From positions 305,851-369,850 of the forward strand of contig JBAZXD010000001.1 in assembly GCA_041660025.1 (NCBI GenBank): 64,000 nt of DNA. The letters run 5' to 3'. Of this stretch, positions 2,301 through 58,426 are shown one piece after another (the stretch's first letter is position 1; each line of letters starts with the position of its first letter). This stretch comes from Minisyncoccota bacterium. GTDB lineage: Bacteria; Patescibacteriota; Minisyncoccia; Phycocordibacterales; Phycocordibacteraceae. A program made the translations under genes and the position numbers. The notes under the pieces were generated by a model, which saw only the letters and a list, made by a program, of their open reading frames with translations, did not search any database and had not been told where the DNA came from.

Positions 2301-2586
2301 GATTTTACTCCTTCGAAAGAACGGCGGACCTGTTTAGGAATTGAGTCGGTCAAATGCTTGGCAGTGGGATAGAAAATTCTCTTTCCACCTCCGCTCAAAC
2401 AATAACACCGTAGATTTATTTGTCAAAACCTTTGTTATCCACAATCAGTTCCCGAGACAGATTTTTGGTAAGGAATAAGATACGCTTGTGTAATTCGTAA
2501 ACGTGTGGTATTACAGTCGGTGGATGCGGCTTTACCGTGACTCTGTTTCCTTGTAAAACTCACACAAACGAAAAAGGAGAATACCG

Positions 2587-3621
2587 ATGAAAGCACTTCG
2601 TACAAGCGCGGTTCTCACTGCGTGCATTATTACGATTATGTTCAGCGGACGCATCGCGTTCGGCCAAGATGAGTCGCTGAGCAGTCGGATAGACTCTGCC
2701 TCGACTTCAGCCGAGGAGCAACGGCAAAAGAAAGAAGCGGCGATACCTCGCTGTGATGCTCCGGTCGGCTCGGTAACCATCGCCATGCCGGAACGCAACT
2801 GGTGGCAGCAATATCAGCTGCAATCGCCGGACGCGCTTATCAAGATGTACGTCGCCAAGTCCGGATGCTTTACGCTCGTTGACCGCGGCCGCGGTTTCGC
2901 CATCGCTGAACGCGAACGCGCGCTCGCAAGCGGCGGCAATCTACGGCAAGGATCGAATATCGGCGGCGGACAAATGAAGGCTGCTGATTTCGTCATTACC
3001 CCCGACATCGTAGTGAATAACAACAACTCCGGCGGCAGTGCGATCGGTGCGATCCTTGGGGCCTTTCTACCCGGACCTATCGGGATGATCGCAGGCCAAG
3101 TAAGGATCTCCGACAAGTCGGCTGACGTCACCCTCGCGGTAACGGATGTCCGCAGTTCGGAACAAGTCGTCCTCGCAGAAGGGCAAGCCACGAAGACTGA
3201 TGTCGGGTTCGGCGTTGCCGGTGGCGCGTTCATGGGCGGCGGTTTCGGCGCTGCAGGTGTAGGAAGCTACGCAAACACAGCACTCGGACAAGTGGTTGCG
3301 CTGGCCTACCTCGACGCCTACACGAAGATGGTCGCGAAGATACAAGTTCTCCGGCCGGCCGATGTGGTCGCCGTCGAACCTCCGTCTGCGGTCCAGGCTC
3401 CTCCGCCGCCTCTGGTTACGGCGGAACCGCGAGGAAAGCCTGTCGCAGTGGCGAAGGCAGGTTATCTCTACGATGGCCCTTCGGCAGAGAACCCCTCCAT
3501 CCGCAGTCTGTCTCCCGGTACCATCCTGTACTCGACATCCAAGAAATCGGGTGCGTGGGTGGAAGTAACGGACGACACCGGCAGGAAAGGATGGGTTTTC
3601 GGGAAGCTGCTCTTTCAGTGA
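2587..3621 (+). CDS. CsgG/HfaB-family (curli-secretion-channel-like) protein with N-terminal signal peptide and C-terminal SH3b domain
   Basis: Strong SD (aaaaggagaataccgATG). Hydrophobic signal peptide. The central region aligns block-wise to CsgG (LVDRGRGFAIAERERAL; ADFVITPDIVVNNNNSGGSAIGA; VGFGVAGGAF...GAAGVGSYANT; ALAYLDAYTKMV). C-terminal YLYDGPS...GAWVEVTDDTGRKGWVFGKLL resembles bacterial SH3. Confidence 0.55.
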   Translation: MKALRTSAVLTACIITIMFSGRIAFGQDESLSSRIDSASTSAEEQRQKKEAAIPRCDAPVGSVTIAMPERNWWQQYQLQSPDALIKMYVAKSGCFTLVDRGRGFAIAERERALASGGNLRQGSNIGGGQMKAADFVITPDIVVNNNNSGGSAIGAILGAFLPGPIGMIAGQVRISDKSADVTLAVTDVRSSEQVVLAEGQATKTDVGFGVAGGAFMGGGFGAAGVGSYANTALGQVVALAYLDAYTKMVAKIQVLRPADVVAVEPPSAVQAPPPPLVTAEPRGKPVAVAKAGYLYDGPSAENPSIRSLSPGTILYSTSKKSGAWVEVTDDTGRKGWVFGKLLFQ

Positions 3622-26137: not shown

Positions 26138-26145
26138 CCGCACGC

Positions 26146-29100
26146 TTACGGCGTCGTTGTCGTCGCGCTCGCCGTAGTATCGGTCGTAGCGGTTGTGTCC
26201 GTTGTGGCGGCGGTAGTATCAGTCGTTGTCGTAGTTGTGTCGGCTGTAATGGTTGTATCCGTTGTCGTGGTGGCTGTGTCGGTCGTTACGATAGTCGTAT
26301 CGGTCGTCGTTGTAGTCGTGTCTGTCGGCGGAGTGGTAGTAGCTGTGTCGGTCGTAGTGGTCGCGGTAGTTGAGTCGGTCGTCAATGAGACGTCCGTAAT
26401 GGTAATGGTCGCGTCCACCAAGGTCGTCGACGTGGCTATCGGGGTGATTGATATATCCGTGGTGGATGCCGTTCCCGAAGTGCCCGTCGCCTGAGTGTTC
26501 ACGAATGCCAAGAGCGCCTTCACATCGTCCTTGGTGAGACACTGGTCATCCACACAGATCTTCTCGCTTGCGCGGAATGTCTTTGCAAAGAGGTCTCCGA
26601 TGCCGTTGCTCGCATTCGCGAACCAGCTCGTTATCTGCTCGGTGGAAGAGGCGATTGATATCATCGGCGACCCGCTTGCGCTGCTCACTGCCCCGCTCTC
26701 AAGGGCGGCTACACGGTCCTCAAGCGAGGTCATACGGGTGGTAAGAGCCTCTACCTTGGCGACCAGGGCCTGGGTGGCGGCGAGGTTGAAGGTGGCGAGC
26801 TTGTAGAGGTCCACGCCCAGCCCATCCGGGGAGAGGATTTCGGGGGCGATGGTAGCCGCATCTTCTGCGATGAAGCCCAGGCGGAGTGGGTCCTGCTGGT
26901 CCTCTATTGTATAGCGATAGGTGGCGACCTTGAGATTCACGAGTTGGTCGAGCATATCGTCGGTGGAGGAAGCGTTGAGATAATTGATGTCGGTCTTGGC
27001 CGAGCGGGTGGAAGTGTTGATGAAGCCGGTGGCGCCGATGTCCCCTGCGACCGTGAGGGTGTGGTTCGGGGTGGAAGTGCCGATGCCGATGTTTCCGGAA
27101 GCATCAATCGTGAGTACGGTCGTGGTGCCGAAATTGTTTTGGATAAATGCGGTCGTGAAAGCAATTTCCTGGATGGCCGAAGTCAAAACGGGGACAAATT
27201 TCTCATAATTAAGAGTGTAGTACCCGTCCGGTCCCATCGTCACTGTTTCCGGAAACAGCGGCAATACTTGTTGTGCGATAAAACCGAGTTGGGTTGACGT
27301 TGAAATTGCGAACGTCGGATGCTGGTCATAATAGAGCTGGTTCCATGTGTGGGTTATCGGCTGTATCTGCATAATGCGTGCAAGAGTGGAGCCTAACGGC
27401 TGTATATTCGTCTTTAATCTCTCATCAGATGCCTGGCTCATACACCAAGAATACTGGGTGCTGCAAATGTTTCCGGCCATCGTTAGAAGGCCGCCCATAG
27501 TCATATCAAAGAGATCCGCCGGAGCCGACCAGCCACCGATGCGGAAGACGTTGTCGGAATCAAGCCCCATATTGACGGCGTAGGCTCCAGCGCGATGGAA
27601 GCTCATCGTCGCGCCACTTCCATTATTGGAATATGCCACAAGGGTCTGACATCCTGCACAAGCAGTATCGTTATTAGAAATAAAATTGTTTCCAGCACTC
27701 CATGTTCCCGTCAAGGCGCTGACATTTGTCGCAGTTCCCCCGTTTGCCGGCGCGCTTCCGGCAGTATTGGCATAGCTCACGCTGAAGTTGGATGGGTTCC
27801 ATACATAGTAATTTGAGCCGTCGTTTGAGCCCCAGAGCCACGACGGCTGGCCTCCCTGCCCGCTCCAGTTAAACGGTTTACTTGAAACATTGCCCCACGC
27901 AACGCTATTCGCCGCCCCAGCAGTTAAGCTCGCCGCCGTTCCCGAGAGACCCGCGCCAGAACCATTGAATTGAGAAGCGGAGACAGCACCTGTTGCGGAG
28001 ATAGTGCCTGCCGATGAGACAGTATTAAAATGGCTGTCATTGTTTAGGTCAATATAGTAAGTGGTACTGCTATCAAGGTCATACATATACCGAGAACGAA
28101 GGCTTCCATCCGTCTGCGTGATAAACCCGCCTTGGGCGCTTAGAGTACCGGCAGCCGCGACGGTGCCAGTGAAACTCGCAGCACTTGAAATCGTCTGGCC
28201 GTTGATAGTGCTTGCCGCATTTATAGTACCGGCGCTGTTTATGACGATGTTGCCGTTCGCCGATGAGATGCCGGTGTCGCTCATATACATCGAGCCCGTG
28301 CCGGTGCGGAGCGTCCCCTTCACCCACAGGTTGCTCGCGAAGGTAGAGGTGGCGTTTGTGCCCGTGCCGTTCACATCGATGAAGCCCGCGAAAGTTGAAG
28401 TCGCGCTTTCCGAGGTAGCGGTGAAGTACGGGGCTGAGATTGAAGAAGTGGCAGTGAACCCACTCGCGGTGATGGTGCCGTCGAAGACTGCGTCCCCTGC
28501 GACGGAGAGTTTCGCATACGGACTCGTCGTCCCGATACCGACGTTGCCATTTGATAAAATTTTAACCTGGCTAGTAGAGTTATTAGCCGACAAATCAATA
28601 CCGCCTACTGCGTTTGTGGCAATAGCATAAGAACCGTTTGTGTCAAAATAACGGTCAAGCCCTGTGTAACCAACTTTATTAATGCCATTAATTTGGCCAT
28701 CTGAACGGAAAACCGCCACATAATTTGCTGAATTATTATTCGCTACAGCAAAAACCCTGGCCACTGCGGGCGCGTTTGTAGAGTTAGTTTCTATGTCAAG
28801 TTGATACTGCGGACTCGTCGTCCCGATGCCGACGTTGCCGGTTGTTGTGATGTTCCCTGCGTTGTCTAGTCTCAGTCTCTCTGCTGTTGATGATGCGTCG
28901 TAGAACCTTAATCCGCCGGCAGAATCGGCTCCGGCAATATTTGAAATTTGCCAGAAATGCGCATTGGCTCCTGAATTGTTTAATGACACGGAAAAATCAC
29001 CTGTGTCCGCGAAGGTTGCCGTTCTGGCGCTTAAAAGTCCACCTGAATCAATTGACGCAACAACTGAATCGTTACTGTTTTTCCATTGGGTCAAGTTTGC

Positions 29101-32100
29101 TGTCTGTCCGGCAAAGCCTCTCACTATTAGACCAATATCGGAAACCGCGCCGGAGTTTATTTGTAATTTTGCCCCCGGATTCGCCGTCCCAATCCCCACA
29201 TTCCCGCCGTTCGTGACGATGAAGTTTGTGGCGGTGGAACTCCCGACGACGAATGCGGGGCCCGTGATGCCATTCGGATTCACGCTCAACTGCCCCCACG
29301 GGCTCGTCGTCCCGATGCCGACGTTGCCTTGAGCATCAACAACAGACAAAGCCACATTGCTGCTATTTTGCCATTCAGTCAAATTGGCTGTTTGGGATGC
29401 CGCTGCCCGAACAACAAATGTTTTTACGCCCGTACCACCACTTGTTATAAGAACCCCCGGATTAGTGCCGATGTCACCACGGGGTTCAAAACGAATAGAA
29501 GTTCCATATTCTGTAATAGGAACACTGAGTTTTATATTGCTTGTATGTACACCAAACTGAGGAGAAGAGGCAAGTGACGCATTCGGTGCCCAAAGGCCTA
29601 GAACATTCCATGTCGATCCCTGAATACCTACATAAGCAGTCGTGCCGTCTGTCGTCTTTATGGCCAACTGCCCCGCACTAGTACCCGCGACTGTCCCTGA
29701 CGACAGGGTAAGCAAATTGGTCGGCGCTGCCGTCCCAATCCCCACATTCCCCCCGTTCGTCACAATGAAGTTGGTGGCGGTAGAGGAACCGACGACGAAT
29801 GCGGGGCCCGTGATGCCGTTCGGGTTCACGCTCAACTGTCCCCACGGACTCGTCGTCCCGATGCCGACGTTGCCTTGAATTATCATTCCGTCTGTCGGCG
29901 CGGCAATAGCAGCATATGTGCTACCGATGCTCACGTTACCAGTCACGCCAAAACGACTTCCAAAAGTAGTACCATTGCCAACAATTACCTTTTGGTTGGC
30001 AGTATCATAGCTCATAAAGTAATCAGCACCGTTCCCCAACACTCCTATCTTCCCTACATCTCTTTGTGTGTAATTAAAGTAGGTACTGGCGTCAATATAT
30101 AATAGCTGACCGGTAGATTTTACCCAGCCAGCGATATTCAATTTGTAACCCGCGGGGTCTATCGTCCCAATCCCCACATTCCCCCCGTTTGTCACGATGA
30201 AGTTCGTGGCGGTGGACGAGCCAACAACGAAGGCTGGGCCCGTGATGCCGTTCGGATTCACGCTCAACTGCCCCCACGGGCTCGTCGTCCCGATGCCGAC
30301 GTTGCCGTTATTTAGAATCCTCATCGCTTCCGTCGCGCCGTTGTTCCCCGTCTGGAATATTATATCTGCACCAGTTGTTCCTACTCCACTGGTAGAACGC
30401 AAGGTTAATGGAGTAGCTACTCCATTCCCACCGTAGTAAATACTTCCACCAGTACTTAAAGTAGCTAATACTCCAGAACCCACTTGTAAGGTGATGGGAT
30501 TGTTCACACTATAAAGTTGCATTCCACTTGATGCTCCACCACTAATTGCACTATAAGAACCAAAATAGCCAATGGTAGTTCCAGCTCTTGAAAAGGTCAT
30601 ACTAGGCCCTGTACTACTATTACTCCCGCCATCTATGGTGATGGTTGGAGAACTGGCTATTGCTCCATTCCCAACAGTAAGCAATGTTCCCGGACTCGCC
30701 GTCCCAATCCCCACATTCCCCCCGTTTGTCACGATGAAGTTCGTGGCGGTGGAACTTCCGACGACGAAGGCGGGGCCGGTGATGCCGTTTGGATTCACGC
30801 TCAACTGCCCCCACGGGCTCGTCGTCCCGATGCCGACGTTCGCCCCGTTCCCAAGTATCAAGCTGTTTGATGCGGTAACCTGGGCATTATAGCCAATTGC
30901 GGTGGCGTTGGTCAGATTATTGGTTGAGCCGTTGCCGGCATCGTAACCGATGAAAGTATTATTACTTCCCGTCGTGTTGGAAATTCCGGCTCTCATGCCA
31001 AGAGCAGTATTACCTGTGCCGGTTGTATTACCTCCTAATGCGTTCCAACCAAGCCCCGAGTTCCGTTCTCCGACTCCGGTCGTTAGACTAAGCGCGCTTG
31101 CGCCGACGGCAGTATTATAATTAGCGGTCGTATTCGCCTGCAATGCCGAATTGCCAATTGCAGTATTCTCGCCTCCGCTTGTATTGTATCTTAAGGAACT
31201 AACACCTACTGCCGTATTTGTGGATCCTCCTGCATTACTTTGAAGAGCAACATATCCTATGGCTATATTGGAGTAACCGGTTGTAACGCCAGGTAGAGCA
31301 TAATTACCCAAAGCAATATTTTGTCCTATGCCGGAAGTTGTTAAATTACCGCTAGGAGAACCGATAAAAATATTTTCCGTTCCGGTCTTGTGAATGAAAG
31401 TTGCACCGTTAAATTGGTATGTTGAAGTCGCGTTTACATTAGAAGCAACAATATCCCCGACAACCGAGAGTTTCGCGTACGGACTCGTCGTCCCGATGCC
31501 GACGTTGCCGGAAGCTGAAATACGCATTTTTTCGGAGAGGGACTGAAGTGTAGTCCCTGACGAGCCTGCGTCTGACGTTGAGAATGTAAGAGCTCCTCCC
31601 TCTGCGTTGCCGGTAGCTTTTCCTCCAGCCAAGGTAACACTTGCGCCGGCAATATTTGTACCTGACCCACCTGTCCCGTTAAGAACAAATCCCGAAGGGG
31701 TCGCGCTAATAATCCCTTTCCCAAAATAAGCCGTCGTAATGGCTTGAGTTGAGTCGTCGGCGCCAACGACAAGGGTATTCGCAACATTTGATAATGAACC
31801 CTGCCCGATAGCTATAGCTCCGAGGGCGGTTGCGCTCGCGCTCTGACCTAAAGCAAGAGCCCTTTCGGCAGACGCGACCGAACTTCCTCCAACGGCCGTT
31901 GACAAAGCACCGCTGGCGGATGTGTTGTGGCCAATTGCTGTAGAAATACTGTTAGCGGCTGATGCGTTGTAACCAAATGCAACACTGCTCCCCCCACTGG
32001 CGCTGGCCCCTCTGCCTATAGCAGTACTTAAGCTGGCCGATACTGATGCTCCGTGCCCAACAGCCAAGCTGTCTGCGGAAGTGCCTGTTGTTGATAAGTA

Positions 32101-34137
32101 ACCAACAGCCATTGACCTGTCTCCATTTGCAATGGAACCAAAACCAAACTTTTCACTTTGAGAACCGGAGCCCGGACTCGTGATGTTGCCCGTCACAATC
32201 GCGGCTCCAGCCACAGACAGCAAGTTGTATGGCGAGGTCGTCCCCACCCCCACATTCCCGCTGCCGGTCACCGTGAAGAATGTCGTGGCCGACGAAGAGG
32301 AAGAAATGCGGAATACGTCGCCGGTCTGTCCGGCGACGCTCTGGAGGGTGAGGGTGGTGTTGGTGGTGGAAGCAGAGGCGTCCTGGATGAAGAGCGGGTG
32401 ATTGAATTCGAAGCGCTTGGCGGATTCAGCCGAGTTCCAGGTGAGGAGGGCGTTCGGGGATATGGTGCCTCGCTCAAAGGAGAGATACGCGTTCTCGGTG
32501 TCGGCAGTGGCGTTGTCGGAGTTGATGTTGAAGGTCTCGGCGGTGAGGTTGCCTCCCGTGAGGGTGCCGACGATGGTGGAGGCGTTCACTTCGTTCGCGT
32601 AGATCTTGTCGAAGCGGACGGCGGGGGTGCCGATGTCCACCGTGTCGTCGAGGGCCTGGATGTTGCCGATGATGGTGTTAGAGCCGATGCGGAGGGTGCC
32701 GGCTGATGCGGTGATGTCGTGGTTGCCGGAGCCTGTGAAGGTGATACCGGAGCCTGTGCCGGTGAGGTACGCTCCAGTGCTTCCTCCCACCGAGAAGTTC
32801 CCGGAGAAGGAAGAAGTGGCTGAGGAGTCGGTCGCCATGAAGTTCTGCCCCACGACCTGTCCAGCAATGGAGAGGAGCGAGTACGGACTTGTGGTGCCGA
32901 TGCCGATGTACCCGGTTGTGGAGTCGACGACGAGCTTGTCGGTGCCGACCGTGAGCCCGCCGGCGAAGGTACTCGTGGCGGTGGTGGAGGTGGCAACGAA
33001 GTGTGGTGCGGTGGCGCTCTGGTATGAGGTGAGGGCGCCGGTGGCGATGAGAGAGCCGGAGGTGAAATCGTCGGCGGTGAGGGTATCGAAGGCGCCGCTC
33101 GTGGCAGAGACGCTGGTGCCGTTCGTGAGCGCGCCACCGTCGAAGGTGCCGCCCCTGAAGTCGCCGTTTCGTACGATGAGGTCAGAGAGGTCTTCGATCA
33201 TATTGACCTGCTGGATGGTGGTGACGTTGGTGGCCACCTGGCTCGCAACGGGCTGGATGAGGCTCGAGACCCGCGTGAGGAGCTCGGTGCGGAGCGAGGT
33301 GAGGGACTGGTTGACGAAGTCTTCGGAGACGCCACGGACGATGGTGGAGTAGTAGTTGGTGGGGTTGAGGGTGGTAACGACACGGGTGACGGCAGGAGGA
33401 GTGATGCTTGCCCTGTTGGGTGCGGAACTATCTGATGGGGGGGCGACGGGGAATGCTGGCTCGCTGGTCACAAGCTGAGATTCATCGAACGGCATCGTGG
33501 CCGGTAGTGGATTAGAGACAACGGCGAGGGGCGATGGCTCGTTAAAGATCCCTGCGAGCACATCTTGGGTACGAGAGAAAAGGCCGTTGATAGTTTCGTA
33601 CGTAGCAAGCGCCACCTGTTCCCCGAATGAAAGCGTGGGCTGAGCGGCGGCAACTGCCGCGATTTGTTTCTCGTTATTCGTGAGATGTGGAACGATTGTA
33701 GATTGCGCCGCGACTATTCCCAGCACGACGATGAATGTTGCGACAGAGAATGCGAATACATTGGTGCGCAATGATGCGCTCCAAATATCGAACCGCGACG
33801 CCGAGTGGTGTGAGAGCGAACGGGACAGTTCCGACGGGAGTTGCTGTTGAAGTGGTTTTGTCAGAGCCTTTACCGTGCGACGTACTGGAGGACGGTGCGA
33901 ATGGTATTCAGCCGCGTGGACGCGGGAACGGATCTGCGAAAGTTCTTCCTTGCGTTCCGCCTGCAGGTCAAGGAAGCGGATGAGCGAGTTGCGTTTGATC
34001 ATCCACACCTTGCCAACCTGAACTCCTTCGACTTCGCCGGACCGCGCAAGACGTCGGAGATAGCTCGAAGTATATCCGGAAAGTTTTCCAGCGTACCGAG
34101 TCGTTATCAGATCTTTTTTATATAAATTCGATTTCAT
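26146..34137 (-). CDS. Giant (2663 aa) membrane-anchored surface protein of phage-tail-fibre type. N-terminal HTH, one TM helix, long GNVGIGTTSP-type repeat region, two tandem S74-like intramolecular chaperone/autoprotease modules, coiled coil, Thr-rich tail
   Basis: Single uninterrupted ORF. The N-terminus carries an excisionase/MerR-like HTH (LSGYTSSYLRRLARSGEVEGVQVGKVWMI). A TM helix (FAFSVATFIVVLGIVAA) follows. More than 10 copies of the GxVGIGTTSP(W/Y)xxLxV tail-fibre motif are present. The SDERLKTNI and SAKTDINYL segments, each followed by a GFIAQQ/GFIAED block, resemble peptidase S74. The C-terminus is a TDTT low-complexity tail. Confidence 0.85.
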   Translation of the reverse strand: MKSNLYKKDLITTRYAGKLSGYTSSYLRRLARSGEVEGVQVGKVWMIKRNSLIRFLDLQAERKEELSQIRSRVHAAEYHSHRPPVRRTVKALTKPLQQQLPSELSRSLSHHSASRFDIWSASLRTNVFAFSVATFIVVLGIVAAQSTIVPHLTNNEKQIAAVAAAQPTLSFGEQVALATYETINGLFSRTQDVLAGIFNEPSPLAVVSNPLPATMPFDESQLVTSEPAFPVAPPSDSSAPNRASITPPAVTRVVTTLNPTNYYSTIVRGVSEDFVNQSLTSLRTELLTRVSSLIQPVASQVATNVTTIQQVNMIEDLSDLIVRNGDFRGGTFDGGALTNGTSVSATSGAFDTLTADDFTSGSLIATGALTSYQSATAPHFVATSTTATSTFAGGLTVGTDKLVVDSTTGYIGIGTTSPYSLLSIAGQVVGQNFMATDSSATSSFSGNFSVGGSTGAYLTGTGSGITFTGSGNHDITASAGTLRIGSNTIIGNIQALDDTVDIGTPAVRFDKIYANEVNASTIVGTLTGGNLTAETFNINSDNATADTENAYLSFERGTISPNALLTWNSAESAKRFEFNHPLFIQDASASTTNTTLTLQSVAGQTGDVFRISSSSSATTFFTVTGSGNVGVGTTSPYNLLSVAGAAIVTGNITSPGSGSQSEKFGFGSIANGDRSMAVGYLSTTGTSADSLAVGHGASVSASLSTAIGRGASASGGSSVAFGYNASAANSISTAIGHNTSASGALSTAVGGSSVASAERALALGQSASATALGAIAIGQGSLSNVANTLVVGADDSTQAITTAYFGKGIISATPSGFVLNGTGGSGTNIAGASVTLAGGKATGNAEGGALTFSTSDAGSSGTTLQSLSEKMRISASGNVGIGTTSPYAKLSVVGDIVASNVNATSTYQFNGATFIHKTGTENIFIGSPSGNLTTSGIGQNIALGNYALPGVTTGYSNIAIGYVALQSNAGGSTNTAVGVSSLRYNTSGGENTAIGNSALQANTTANYNTAVGASALSLTTGVGERNSGLGWNALGGNTTGTGNTALGMRAGISNTTGSNNTFIGYDAGNGSTNNLTNATAIGYNAQVTASNSLILGNGANVGIGTTSPWGQLSVNPNGITGPAFVVGSSTATNFIVTNGGNVGIGTASPGTLLTVGNGAIASSPTITIDGGSNSSTGPSMTFSRAGTTIGYFGSYSAISGGASSGMQLYSVNNPITLQVGSGVLATLSTGGSIYYGGNGVATPLTLRSTSGVGTTGADIIFQTGNNGATEAMRILNNGNVGIGTTSPWGQLSVNPNGITGPAFVVGSSTATNFIVTNGGNVGIGTIDPAGYKLNIAGWVKSTGQLLYIDASTYFNYTQRDVGKIGVLGNGADYFMSYDTANQKVIVGNGTTFGSRFGVTGNVSIGSTYAAIAAPTDGMIIQGNVGIGTTSPWGQLSVNPNGITGPAFVVGSSTATNFIVTNGGNVGIGTAAPTNLLTLSSGTVAGTSAGQLAIKTTDGTTAYVGIQGSTWNVLGLWAPNASLASSPQFGVHTSNIKLSVPITEYGTSIRFEPRGDIGTNPGVLITSGGTGVKTFVVRAAASQTANLTEWQNSSNVALSVVDAQGNVGIGTTSPWGQLSVNPNGITGPAFVVGSSTATNFIVTNGGNVGIGTANPGAKLQINSGAVSDIGLIVRGFAGQTANLTQWKNSNDSVVASIDSGGLLSARTATFADTGDFSVSLNNSGANAHFWQISNIAGADSAGGLRFYDASSTAERLRLDNAGNITTTGNVGIGTTSPQYQLDIETNSTNAPAVARVFAVANNNSANYVAVFRSDGQINGINKVGYTGLDRYFDTNGSYAIATNAVGGIDLSANNSTSQVKILSNGNVGIGTTSPYAKLSVAGDAVFDGTITASGFTATSSISAPYFTATSESATSTFAGFIDVNGTGTNATSTFASNLWVKGTLRTGTGSMYMSDTGISSANGNIVINSAGTINAASTINGQTISSAASFTGTVAAAGTLSAQGGFITQTDGSLRSRYMYDLDSSTTYYIDLNNDSHFNTVSSAGTISATGAVSASQFNGSGAGLSGTAASLTAGAANSVAWGNVSSKPFNWSGQGGQPSWLWGSNDGSNYYVWNPSNFSVSYANTAGSAPANGGTATNVSALTGTWSAGNNFISNNDTACAGCQTLVAYSNNGSGATMSFHRAGAYAVNMGLDSDNVFRIGGWSAPADLFDMTMGGLLTMAGNICSTQYSWCMSQASDERLKTNIQPLGSTLARIMQIQPITHTWNQLYYDQHPTFAISTSTQLGFIAQQVLPLFPETVTMGPDGYYTLNYEKFVPVLTSAIQEIAFTTAFIQNNFGTTTVLTIDASGNIGIGTSTPNHTLTVAGDIGATGFINTSTRSAKTDINYLNASSTDDMLDQLVNLKVATYRYTIEDQQDPLRLGFIAEDAATIAPEILSPDGLGVDLYKLATFNLAATQALVAKVEALTTRMTSLEDRVAALESGAVSSASGSPMISIASSTEQITSWFANASNGIGDLFAKTFRASEKICVDDQCLTKDDVKALLAFVNTQATGTSGTASTTDISITPIATSTTLVDATITITDVSLTTDSTTATTTTDTATTTPPTDTTTTTTDTTIVTTDTATTTTDTTITADTTTTTTDTTAATTDTTATTDTTASATTTTP
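26149..26465 (-). repeat. Degenerate tandem repeat encoding a Thr/Asp-rich C-terminal tail
   Basis: DNA shows reiterated gtcgt(a/t)g.. units; protein reads TDTTATTDTT.. for ~105 aa. Confidence 0.6.
29190..30850 (-). repeat. Four near-identical ~140-bp intragenic DNA repeats at ~540-bp spacing, encoding identical 46-aa cassettes
   Basis: Repeated DNA blocks recur at about 29.2-29.33, 29.74-29.88, 30.17-30.30 and 30.70-30.85 kb, e.g. ggactcgtcgtcccgatgccgacgttgcc and attccccccgttcgtcacgatgaagtt.gtggcggtgga. Each encodes GNVGIGTTSPWGQLSVNPNGITGPAFVVGSSTATNFIVTNGGNVGIGT. Confidence 0.8.
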
Positions 34138-34559
34138 TCTTAAAGCCGAAACTAATCAGATAATAACTGATTATTTCCACTTTCTATAAATCCTATAAGT
34201 GGATAACTTCTTGGCCACGCGAGGAGATACTTTTTGCTCTGGCACCGAGGCTTCTCAGAGGGTCAAAACAACTAGTACGAAACGCTATCCGCATACCCCT
34301 TTTGACCTCGAAATGGAGTGTCTCGGCAGAACCTTTCGTAATTGCCTTTATATACGCTGTTTAAATGCTCTATACGCCCCCTAAAGAGGCTTTTCTGGTA
34401 AATATCCGAGAGAACATCTTGCGGTATAGTGTTGTATTGCTGATATTGGATCTTGCCGAAAAAAGTAGTCCGGAGAAATTATGTCTATCTGGTGCTTAAA
34501 TGCCTATCACGTCTAGCCGAGACAAGAAAGCCAATGTTTTGGCGTATGGAATAGCAAAA

Positions 34560-34592
34560 TAAAAACACCCTCGCGGGTGTCTTTATTTTCAA
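34560..34592 (-). terminator. Rho-independent terminator downstream of the DEAD-box helicase gene
   Basis: On the minus strand: acacccgcgagggtgt hairpin followed by TTTTATTTT. Confidence 0.5.
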
Positions 34593-34602
34593 AGAGGGTT
34601 GA

Positions 34603-57079: not shown

Positions 57080-58426
57080 ATGAAAGAGATTGTGCAAGAT
57101 GGTGCACCGGTGCTCCGCGAGGTCGCAAGCCCCGTGCCGGAAGAGCTCTTCGGGACGCCGGAACTCGCTCAGATTATCGCCGATATGACCGAGGCGCTCG
57201 ACCGCGAGCTCGAGGGCGTGGCGCTCGCCGCGCCGCAGATCGGCGTTTCCTATCGCATCTTCATCGTGCGGAAGGACCGCACGATAGACGTACATCGTGA
57301 TGAGTCGCATAAACTTTCTTCGCCGAAAGAGTTGGCACCCGAGGTTGAGGTATATATCAATCCTGAAATATTGAAGACCTCGCGGAGGCGTGCGGTGGTG
57401 GACGAGGGCTGTCTCTCAGTCCGCGGCATCTACGGCTCAACCAAGCGGCACGAGCGCGTCACGCTCCGCGCGCGGCGGGTCGACGGTTCCCGCTTCGAGC
57501 GCGGCGGCGGCGGCATAATGGCGCAGATATTCGAGCACGAAACTGACCACCTCAACGGCATCCTCTTCATCGATCATGCTGAACAGCTCATCAGTATCCC
57601 GCGCGGGTCGGCGCATCCGTTCATCTATTTCGGTACGCCACAGGTCGCGAGCGACACACTTGAGATCCTTATCGAACGCGGTTTTCTCCCCTCGCTCGTG
57701 GTCACCTCGCCGGACGCCCCGAAGGGTCGCGGTCTCGCGCTCGCTTCATCAGAGACAAAGGTGTGTGCACTCGCACACGGCATCCCCGTCCTCACCCCCG
57801 AGAAGCTCGATGCCGAAATAATCGCTACTCTCGCCGCACTCGGGGCTGAGTACGCTATCGTCGTCGCCTACGGCAAGATATTCCCCGACGAGCTTATTAA
57901 GGCCTTCCCGCTCGGGGTACTGAACGTCCACTACTCGCTCCTACCGAAGTATCGCGGCGCGACGCCGCTTGAGGCCGCATTGCGCGCGGGCGAGACCGAG
58001 ACCGGAGTCTCGGTCCAGAAGATGGTGCGAGAGCTCGACGCCGGCGACATCATTGCTCAGGAGGCTGTGCCAATCGCTCCCGGCGAGACTGCACGCGAGC
58101 TGCGCCCGCGGCTCATCAAGCTCGGCGCGACGCTCCTCGCCGATACGCTCCCCGCCTATCTTGAAGGCAGTGTCGTCTCCGTTCCCCAGGATGCAGCGCT
58201 CGCTTCGCGCTCAGGGAAGTTGAAGAAGGAGGACGGTCTTCTCGCGCTCGACGCGCCCGCTGAGGAGAATTGGAACAAGTACCGCGCATATGCGGATAGC
58301 ATCGGCACGTATTTCTTTGAAAACGGCAAACGGATGAAGATAACGAGCGCAACATTTAAAAACGGGAAATTCCTCATCGAACGCGTCATCCCCGAAGGCA
58401 AGCGCGAAATTGAGTACAGAAGTTAG
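57080..58426 (+). CDS. def-fmt: Peptide deformylase / methionyl-tRNA formyltransferase fusion protein
   Basis: One 448-aa ORF. Residues 1-~180 carry Def motifs (GVALAAPQIG, EGCLS, QIFEHETDHLNG). Residues ~181-448 carry Fmt motifs (FIYFGTPQVA N-terminus, HYSLLPKYRG, C-terminal beta domain). No stop or start at the junction. Confidence 0.8.
   Translation: MKEIVQDGAPVLREVASPVPEELFGTPELAQIIADMTEALDRELEGVALAAPQIGVSYRIFIVRKDRTIDVHRDESHKLSSPKELAPEVEVYINPEILKTSRRRAVVDEGCLSVRGIYGSTKRHERVTLRARRVDGSRFERGGGGIMAQIFEHETDHLNGILFIDHAEQLISIPRGSAHPFIYFGTPQVASDTLEILIERGFLPSLVVTSPDAPKGRGLALASSETKVCALAHGIPVLTPEKLDAEIIATLAALGAEYAIVVAYGKIFPDELIKAFPLGVLNVHYSLLPKYRGATPLEAALRAGETETGVSVQKMVRELDAGDIIAQEAVPIAPGETARELRPRLIKLGATLLADTLPAYLEGSVVSVPQDAALASRSGKLKKEDGLLALDAPAEENWNKYRAYADSIGTYFFENGKRMKITSATFKNGKFLIERVIPEGKREIEYRS

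Follow-up and report, generated by a model that had tools for sequence, protein, structure and literature searches.

In the diderm predator Bdellovibrio bacteriovorus, chromosomally encoded fibres of the peptidase S74 type, the MATs (mosaic adhesive trimers; e.g., Bd3182; PDB 8ojn, 8ol4, 8ond), were shown experimentally to be located on the cell surface, to cleave themselves at a Ser and to bind prey glycans (PMC10769870). These proteins of ~1000 aa have a signal peptide that is cleaved, a conserved beta-rich N-terminal domain of ~130 aa that is used for retention, and one C-terminal S74 domain (PMC10769870). The MAT superfamily is the nearest characterised system to the gene described here, a single giant open reading frame (ORF) at 26146..34137 on the minus strand of a 64,000-nt stretch from a Minisyncoccota bacterium (contig JBAZXD010000001.1, positions 305,851 to 369,850; hereafter the window). 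The gene encodes a cellular S74 fibre within a large, apparently undescribed family of the Patescibacteria (Candidate Phyla Radiation, CPR). We assign a probability of about 0.68 to the reading that its product is a long homotrimeric surface recognition fibre of a Kaiserbacteria-like bacterium, which would be matured by S74 autoproteolysis and built like the MAT and phage fibres.

The ORF starts with ATG and comprises 2663 codons plus stop, as the initial annotation had stated, and the start Met is backed by an N-terminal alignment in which relatives begin at the same Met. NCBIfam returned no match for the protein. Peptidase_S74 (PF13884) matched two stretches with 73.1 bits (cut-off 22, E = 2.3e-20), and both strings from which tandem S74 modules had initially been read, ASDERLKTNIQPL...GFIAQQV and TRSAKTDINYL...GFIAEDA, are found in the protein. 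Together with the conserved catalytic dyad and the predicted fold, this identifies both modules as genuine. Module 1 (residues 2237-2335, 27133..27429; this and all following features of the gene lie on the minus strand) belongs in the family alignment to the canonical subtype S-D-x-R-L-K ... GFIAQ, its dyad being Ser2237 (nt 27427-27429) and Lys2242 (nt 27412-27414). Module 2, which includes a 37-residue helix (residues 2376-2480, 26698..27012), is a distinct STRxAK subtype, F-x-N-x-S-T-R-x-A-K-x-D-I-x-Y ... LG(F/L)IAE(E/D), with the dyad Ser2376 (nt 27010-27012) and Lys2381 (nt 26995-26997) in S-T-R-S-A-K. The second cleavage site had originally been placed at the Ser of SAK; the alignment moves it three residues upstream, to S2376.

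An iterative profile detected an S74-like domain in 83 of 121 proteins, and at least 22 of these 83 S74-bearing relatives contain the full module twice, at a distance of 130-150 residues. In these tandem relatives, neither the first (22/22) nor the second modules (22/22) show any change in the Ser-x4-Lys dyad, which is also near-invariant in 55 relatives with a single module. The tandem arrangement had been called unusual. This is correct with regard to phages, as both modules together occurred in none of 50,697 phage records or IMG/VR hits, but the arrangement is recurrent within the large family in Patescibacteria. An AlphaFold2 (AF2) monomer model built on 18 tandem relatives reached a predicted local distance difference test score (pLDDT) of 72-89 across both modules, and of ~80 for the long helix following module 2 (residues 2444-2480), a helix already noticed in the initial annotation. 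When this model was compared with the PDB by Foldseek, the top 11 matches were all intramolecular chaperone domains, including the MyRF ICA domain 7dc3 (E = 2.7e-4, TM-score 0.61), the GA-1 protein 3gud and endoNF 3gw6, which gives moderate support to a predicted fold like that of the solved chaperone domains. In the PDB sequence search, module 1 aligned with the tail-fibre S74 domain 8jov. The short beta-helix/capping-loop unit between the modules (GNIGIGTSTPNHTLTVAGD; residues 2336-2375, 27013..27132), with the motif GNIGIGTSTP, aligned with the MyRF ICA domain and with Bdellovibrio MAT fibres of the "cell wall surface anchor family", and is nearly invariant across the family.

Module 2 is followed by a small Cys-containing domain (residues 2481-2558, 26464..26697), which is common to P0006, the syntenic giant protein of the groundwater contig L001, and ~15 other relatives; its motif CVDDQCLTKDDV was found in 7 proteins. 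The chain ends in a low-complexity tail (residues 2559-2663, 26149..26463) that is indeed Thr-rich, with 60 Thr in 105 residues.

Between the N-terminal region and the S74 modules extends the putative fibre. It begins with a membrane-proximal base (residues 161-646, 32200..33657), in which a Pro/Ser-rich linker (residues 196-262) is followed by the first capping-loop motifs. The base is the best-conserved part of the predicted extracellular region and 62-75% identical to the relatives P0001 and P0002. Two Hep_Hag/YadA-head-like repeat blocks of the trimeric autotransporter type come next (residues 655-1110, 30808..32175). Here, Pfam YadA_head gave six stretches below the cut-off, the tail-spike family phrog_4636 matched with 1.4e-23, and the PDB sequence matches comprised BpaC (7o23), AtaA (3wp8), the Hep_Hag protein 3s6l, EibD and YadA. 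Later fibre segments resembled MAT beta-helices such as that of Bd2133. The distal region (residues 1852-2236, 27430..28584), which would form the tip after cleavage, is phage-tail-fibre-like (phrog_9942, phrog_33119); tblastn against phages aligned residues ~2089-2334 with tail-fibre/gp12-like proteins at 25-32% identity. Altogether, PHROGs tail-spike and tail-fibre families matched along residues 881-2465. The initial claim that GNVGIGTTSP-type repeats make up most of the length was overstated: the motif G(N/Y)(V/I)G(I/V)GT is present in 13 copies, but autotransporter-type head repeats occur as well.

The repeats were characterised with a DNA repeat finder and by direct comparison. In the zone of residues 1104-1651 (29185..30828), a 43-residue connector occurs four times (nt 30700-30828, 30163-30291, 29731-29859 and 29185-29313). 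The four copies are 100% identical as protein, and their DNA differs at 9-14 of 129 nt per pair (7-11%), all of these differences being synonymous and including AGT<->TCN serine switches. The same connector is 79-97% identical in giant proteins of other species, and the inserts between its copies are mutually unrelated. Hence, strongly constrained connectors alternate with variable cassettes along the fibre. The conservation of the connectors suggests that purifying selection is extreme or that recombinogenic identical DNA is selected against.

Matches to phage fibres raise the question of whether this is an ordinary phage, prophage or tailocin tail-fibre gene sitting in a chromosome. The PHROG and phage tblastn matches, a low GC content at third codon positions (GC3) in the gene centre, the variability of the locus and an IS200-like Y1 transposase adjoining the giant gene in L001 agree with such an origin, but the phage matches are 25-36% identical and cover at most one third of the query, and the N-terminus consists of a helix-turn-helix (HTH) and a hydrophobic membrane segment instead of a virion-attachment domain. 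Moreover, no phage-type Pfam family was detected in the ~50 window ORFs scanned, 15 of which had no match, and no capsid, terminase, portal, baseplate, tail tube or integrase family in the scans of the 64-kb window. The gene is a lone insertion between recR, dnaB, cysS and corA on one flank and genes for a DEAD-box helicase, RmuC, a Mur ligase, a penicillin-binding protein (PBP) and MraW on the other. Elsewhere, the window encodes aminoacyl-tRNA synthetases, ftsW, murG, mreB/C, greA, frr, murA, a def-fmt fusion and three tRNAs, and every scanned neighbour with a Pfam match across the 64 kb is a housekeeping gene. The flanks and the lack of phage genes that had been described from the sequence were thus borne out, and the phage-gene explanation is largely refuted and extremely improbable.

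The same order of genes, mraZ-mraW-PBP-Mur-YqeY-RmuC-L21-DEAD, the giant gene, and recR-dnaB-cysS-corA, exists in L001, with flanking proteins 70-88% identical to those of the window, and this synteny likewise speaks for the earlier view that the gene is not part of a prophage. The syntenic giant protein P0006, however, matches only residues 1-448 (40%) and 2231-2571 (50%), and BLAST found no match to it in the centre of the protein. The small-genome host that had been postulated is supported by the DnaA-adjacent marker DnaB: a protein from a "Patescibacteria group bacterium" shares 94% identity with it, and others under the labels Candidatus Kaiserbacteria, Paceibacterota and Minisyncoccota share 88-89%. 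In the relatives whose DnaB is most similar (94%), the slot between recR and the helicase holds seven unrelated small genes, among them YggT-like, DUF5670, PhoD_N-like, ECF sigma factor and PG_binding genes, and in a Kaiserbacteria genome (DnaB 89%) the slot is empty and recR directly abuts the helicase. Because its slot is empty or otherwise filled in the closest relatives, the gene is accessory, and the notion that it always resides in the chromosome at this site was not upheld. It is chromosomal and situated in a replacement hotspot.

The codon composition adds to this picture. GC3 amounts to 0.64-0.81 in 20 neighbouring genes, and within the giant gene to a host-like 0.84 in residues 301-600, to 0.45-0.56 in residues 601-2100 and to 0.70 at the C-terminus. 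The centre of the gene looks imported or recombined, and the fast mosaic evolution evident from the divergent fibre, the low-GC3 centre and the variable slot is typical of recognition proteins. In the lineage as a whole, the junction of recR and the DEAD-box helicase gene (26138-34602 compared with L053-L056 and L001) constitutes a replacement hotspot. Rfam searches revealed nothing in the window beyond the three tRNAs. As a separate observation, the def-fmt fusion is one ORF (57080-58426, plus strand) that joins peptide deformylase and methionyl-tRNA formyltransferase domains.

We identified 237 homologues of the giant protein with E <= 1e-10; those with a taxonomic label come nearly all from the same radiation. 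The homologues measure 1500-4500 aa, share the recurring Pfam set HTH_17, DUF5011 and Peptidase_S74, and carry automatic NCBI names such as "tail fiber domain-containing protein". More distant proteins combining a fibre with S74 were found in genomes of Pseudobdellovibrionaceae, Limnobacter and Bacteroidia. Our search of the literature on S74, tail-fibre or giant proteins in Patescibacteria/CPR, the coverage of which was incomplete, yielded no description of the family. The initial annotation had seen a domesticated phage tail fibre in the gene. This direction of descent is unproven, as a cellular class of S74 fibres exists in the MATs and the protein is equally related to autotransporter heads. 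The role as an adhesin and the episymbiotic life of the bacterium that were proposed along with it are putative.

How might such a protein work? According to the surface-fibre reading, the winged HTH would stay in the cytoplasm, whereas the hydrophobic segment at residues 123-147 would direct Sec export of the remaining ~2500 residues. The C-terminus would emerge last, and the twin S74 modules, aided by the helix at residues 2444-2480, would trimerise and template the folding of the fibre from its distal end inwards. Using its Ser-Lys dyad, each module would then cleave at a Ser of its own (S2237 and S2376), shedding the C-terminal 427 residues and exposing the tail-fibre-like tip (residues ~1850-2236), which would attach to a structure on the surface of another cell. 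Specificity or reach may be set by the variable central cassettes, the conserved ends serving to anchor and assemble the fibre. Scaled from Bd3182 (~55 nm for ~900 aa; PMC10769870), such a fibre would measure some 100-150 nm.

Several observations weigh against this scheme. A ligand-binding domain of known specificity was not found in the protein. Just before module 1, the pLDDT of the AF2 monomer falls to 25-35; low confidence over the preceding fibre is, however, to be expected from a monomer model of an obligate trimer. In the phage paradigm, S74 forms the terminus of the polypeptide, whereas here 183 residues follow module 2, and in most relatives 100-450, in some cases with Ig-like DUF5011 domains. 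The fragment that is shed may thus be functional in itself, or one of the sites may stay uncut. Furthermore, the fibre role leaves a highly conserved cytoplasmic DNA-binding fold unexplained. Finally, the hydrophobic segment ends with AxA in 18 of 27 relatives and is then followed by a conserved (I/V)PQ, so that the fibre may not stay tethered through this segment.

The last point bears on an alternative in which residues 1 to ~147 are removed by signal peptidase I as an unusually long signal peptide. The fibre would then be held non-covalently by its base (residues 161-646) or be released, and the remnant of HTH and membrane segment would stay in the membrane or be freed by intramembrane proteolysis, acting as a regulator that reports the amount of exported fibre. 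The only hydrophobic segment of the protein (residues 123-147, 33697..33771) might serve as a signal-anchor or, alternatively, form the h-region of a signal peptide that is cleaved. It has the anatomy of the latter, with a basic n-region (SLRSQ) on its N-terminal side, an h-region of 17-20 residues and Gly/Ser near the end. Together, the AxA and (I/V)PQ motifs in the family alignment suggest processing by signal peptidase of a ~145-residue leader containing a folded domain. The conservation of the base and the way in which Bdellovibrio MATs are retained, by a conserved N-terminal domain next to a signal peptide that is cleaved (PMC10769870), point in the same direction. However, the site of the giant protein itself reads VAAQ|S and not AxA, a folded domain and ~120 residues ahead of the h-region greatly exceed what is known of signal peptides, and the base showed no domain for binding peptidoglycan or an S-layer. 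We consider leader cleavage possible, though rather less than an even bet. The single transmembrane anchor of the initial annotation consequently stands as one hydrophobic segment, but anchoring is only one of two ways to read it. Of the earlier interpretation as a whole, the non-prophage nature, the genuine S74 modules and the patescibacterial host were retained, but not the fixed residence, the direction of domestication or the certainty of the anchor.

The N-terminal domain deserves separate consideration. Searched alone, the giant protein scored 16.9-22 bits against HTH_17 (residues 8-57, 33967..34116), below the Pfam cut-off of 27, but the HTH first read from the sequence was substantiated by matches of 26 of 27 family N-termini (best E = 3.3e-8), by the model and by fold comparisons. 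The model of residues 10-80 (pLDDT ~97) displays a beta-alpha-alpha-beta-beta-long-helix layout, the long conserved helix (residues 49-80, 33898..33993) carrying the invariant E77 and Y78. The nearest solved folds were Pukovnik Xis (root-mean-square deviation 1.6 A), TraN, BldC, Tn916 Xis, RdfS and RacA, with E-values that are weak owing to the small size of the domain. We regard the predicted cytoplasmic winged HTH of the excisionase/MerR type, a fold of double-stranded-DNA binders, as real, judging by alignment and model. Conservation in the family is highest over the first ~165 residues, 11 positions of which do not vary among 27 sequences. A profile of this N-terminal module matched 192 cluster representatives among 1.84 billion (E <= 1e-30), nearly always at residues 1-165 and in proteins of up to 7275 aa, whereas the homologue search with the N-terminal 190 residues alone yielded 5 fragments only, owing to a word-index limit. 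In ten mid-length proteins with the module, Pfam shows HTH_17 only and no other cargo domains; these may be truncated giants. In P0001, P0126, P0133, P0150, P0181 and others, the profile match starts at residue ~67 and comprises two stretches, which indicates that the HTH is duplicated at their N-terminus, in front of the membrane segment. No contig record encoding P0001 was found.

Directly upstream of the gene lies a conserved element (34138..34212, minus strand) in which a TTATCCAC box (34199-34206) is combined with a ~45-nt proximal block. Over the ~75 nt that precede the ATG, the window and L001 (9926-10000) share ~93% identity, whereas the rest of the spacer has diverged. A related bipartite element stands directly before the giant genes of L002, L003, L005, L006 and L007; the family members in five other genomes have TTATCCACAC and a near-identical 45-nt block ending at the ATG. 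The proximal block is family-specific. In the window it contains the perfect palindrome TAATCAG-N7-CTGATTA (34153-34173), which is unique there. A family-wide palindromic operator was dropped as a candidate, the palindrome being absent from the paralogues; what is conserved family-wide is the block itself.

These features could belong to a ToxR/CadC-like transmembrane contact sensor or tethered transcription factor, in which binding or tension of the fibre alters DNA binding by the HTH, with autoregulation via the upstream element. The strong conservation of the HTH, its similarity to DNA binders (Xis, TraN, BldC, RacA), its nearly constant position in the 192 cluster representatives and the family-specific block immediately before the ATG are consistent with this. 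In addition, the window and L001 form a subgroup set apart in both HTH sequence and proximal block; such co-variation is a hint of autoregulation, but comes from two subgroups only. The block may also be a mere promoter or leader, since its centre TTATTAT resembles a -10 box, and the TTATCCAC box likewise precedes secA-like and other genes. Furthermore, the HTH of bitopic proteins can bind proteins instead of DNA, RodZ binding MreB being an example. All in all, a contact sensor seems unlikely.

The TTATCCACA box had been a candidate for a family-specific element and was rejected, as it too precedes secA-like and other genes; the TTATCCACA/TTATCCAC box is a general promoter-associated motif. 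As a DnaA-box-like nonamer, TTATCCACA(C) was found at 2435-2442 (plus strand) of the window and at L003 2531, L006 2389, L007 2534 and L010 3156. In these Patescibacteria loci, 60-240 nt separate it from unrelated downstream genes, among them secA-like genes and one for a CsgG/SH3 lipoprotein-like protein (window 2587-3621), and in L009 it lies just upstream of a canonical TTGACA-17-TATAAT promoter. The nonamer may be a general promoter-associated or a DnaA-regulated site.

A bolder reading combines these elements into a new transmembrane coupling device. A giant recognition fibre would be joined, perhaps until cleavage by signal peptidase and an intramembrane protease, to a cytoplasmic Xis/MerR-type domain that recognises the upstream element of its own gene, and the twin S74 modules would act as a two-step switch of assembly and release. 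If true, transcription would receive a direct report of host contact or fibre export, or DNA would be positioned at the contact site, in bacteria with very few conventional signalling systems. We regard this as doubtful; even so, the unexplained coupling to the HTH is the part most worth following, and the fusion to a DNA-binding fold plus a conserved upstream element could reveal a new regulatory link between surface and genome.

We know of no account of how CPR bacteria of the Paceibacteria/Parcubacteria type find and hold their partner cells, and to our knowledge almost none of them has been cultured. As large, fast-evolving, modular fibres encoded in flexible slots, the giant proteins are testable candidate recognition molecules, in parallel to the receptor-binding proteins of phages and the MAT fibres of Bdellovibrio. 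With them, the S74 chaperones reach a third cellular setting and occur as a tandem in which both catalytic dyads are conserved, which should help to explain the assembly of very long trimeric fibres once they have been exported by Sec.

Compared with the known systems, the giant protein shares most with the MATs. Both are chromosomally encoded, mosaic, contain the V-G-x-G/N...P...L capping-loop motif and have a C-terminal S74 with an SDxxxK-type motif, and both belong to multigene families with interchangeable modules. The alignments to the MATs 8ojn, 8ol4 and 8ond are weak (E 0.0004 to 0.1), and, unlike MATs, the giant protein has 2663 aa, an HTH and a hydrophobic segment at the N-terminus, two S74 modules plus 183 residues, and a CPR host. 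With phage fibres and tailspikes (K1F endosialidase 3gw6, GA-1 neck appendage 3gud, T5 pb1) it has the S74 fold, the Ser-Lys dyad and a tail-fibre-like region just before the cleavage site in common, but it lacks the virion-attachment N-terminus and nearby phage genes. MyRF, whose ICA domain 7dc3 was the best structural match to the S74 modules, also unites a DNA-binding domain, a membrane segment, a capping-loop beta-helix and S74 in one chain. Its order, however, is DNA-binding domain, ICA, membrane segment, and cleavage frees a DNA-binding trimer, whereas the giant protein is arranged as HTH, membrane segment, fibre, S74, S74, and its DNA-binding domain is a winged HTH of the Xis/MerR type rather than of the Ndt80 type. 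A MyRF-like release was therefore rejected: given the order of HTH (residues 8-57), membrane segment (123-147) and S74 modules (2237-2480), the latter are distal to the membrane and their cleavage is unable to free the HTH. Trimeric autotransporters (YadA, BpaC, AtaA, EibD) have Hep_Hag/YadA-head repeats like those at residues ~655-1110. The YadA_anchor beta-barrel had no Pfam match in the giant protein, in which only head-type repeats appeared, below the cut-off; a bacterium that lacks an outer membrane would have no need of such an anchor, and assembly would use the S74 modules instead. ToxR/CadC and RodZ, finally, have the topology predicted here, the HTH lying in the cytoplasm and a single membrane segment linking it to the extracytoplasmic domain, but the giant protein has an HTH of another family and an extracytoplasmic part that is ~10 times larger and fibre-like.

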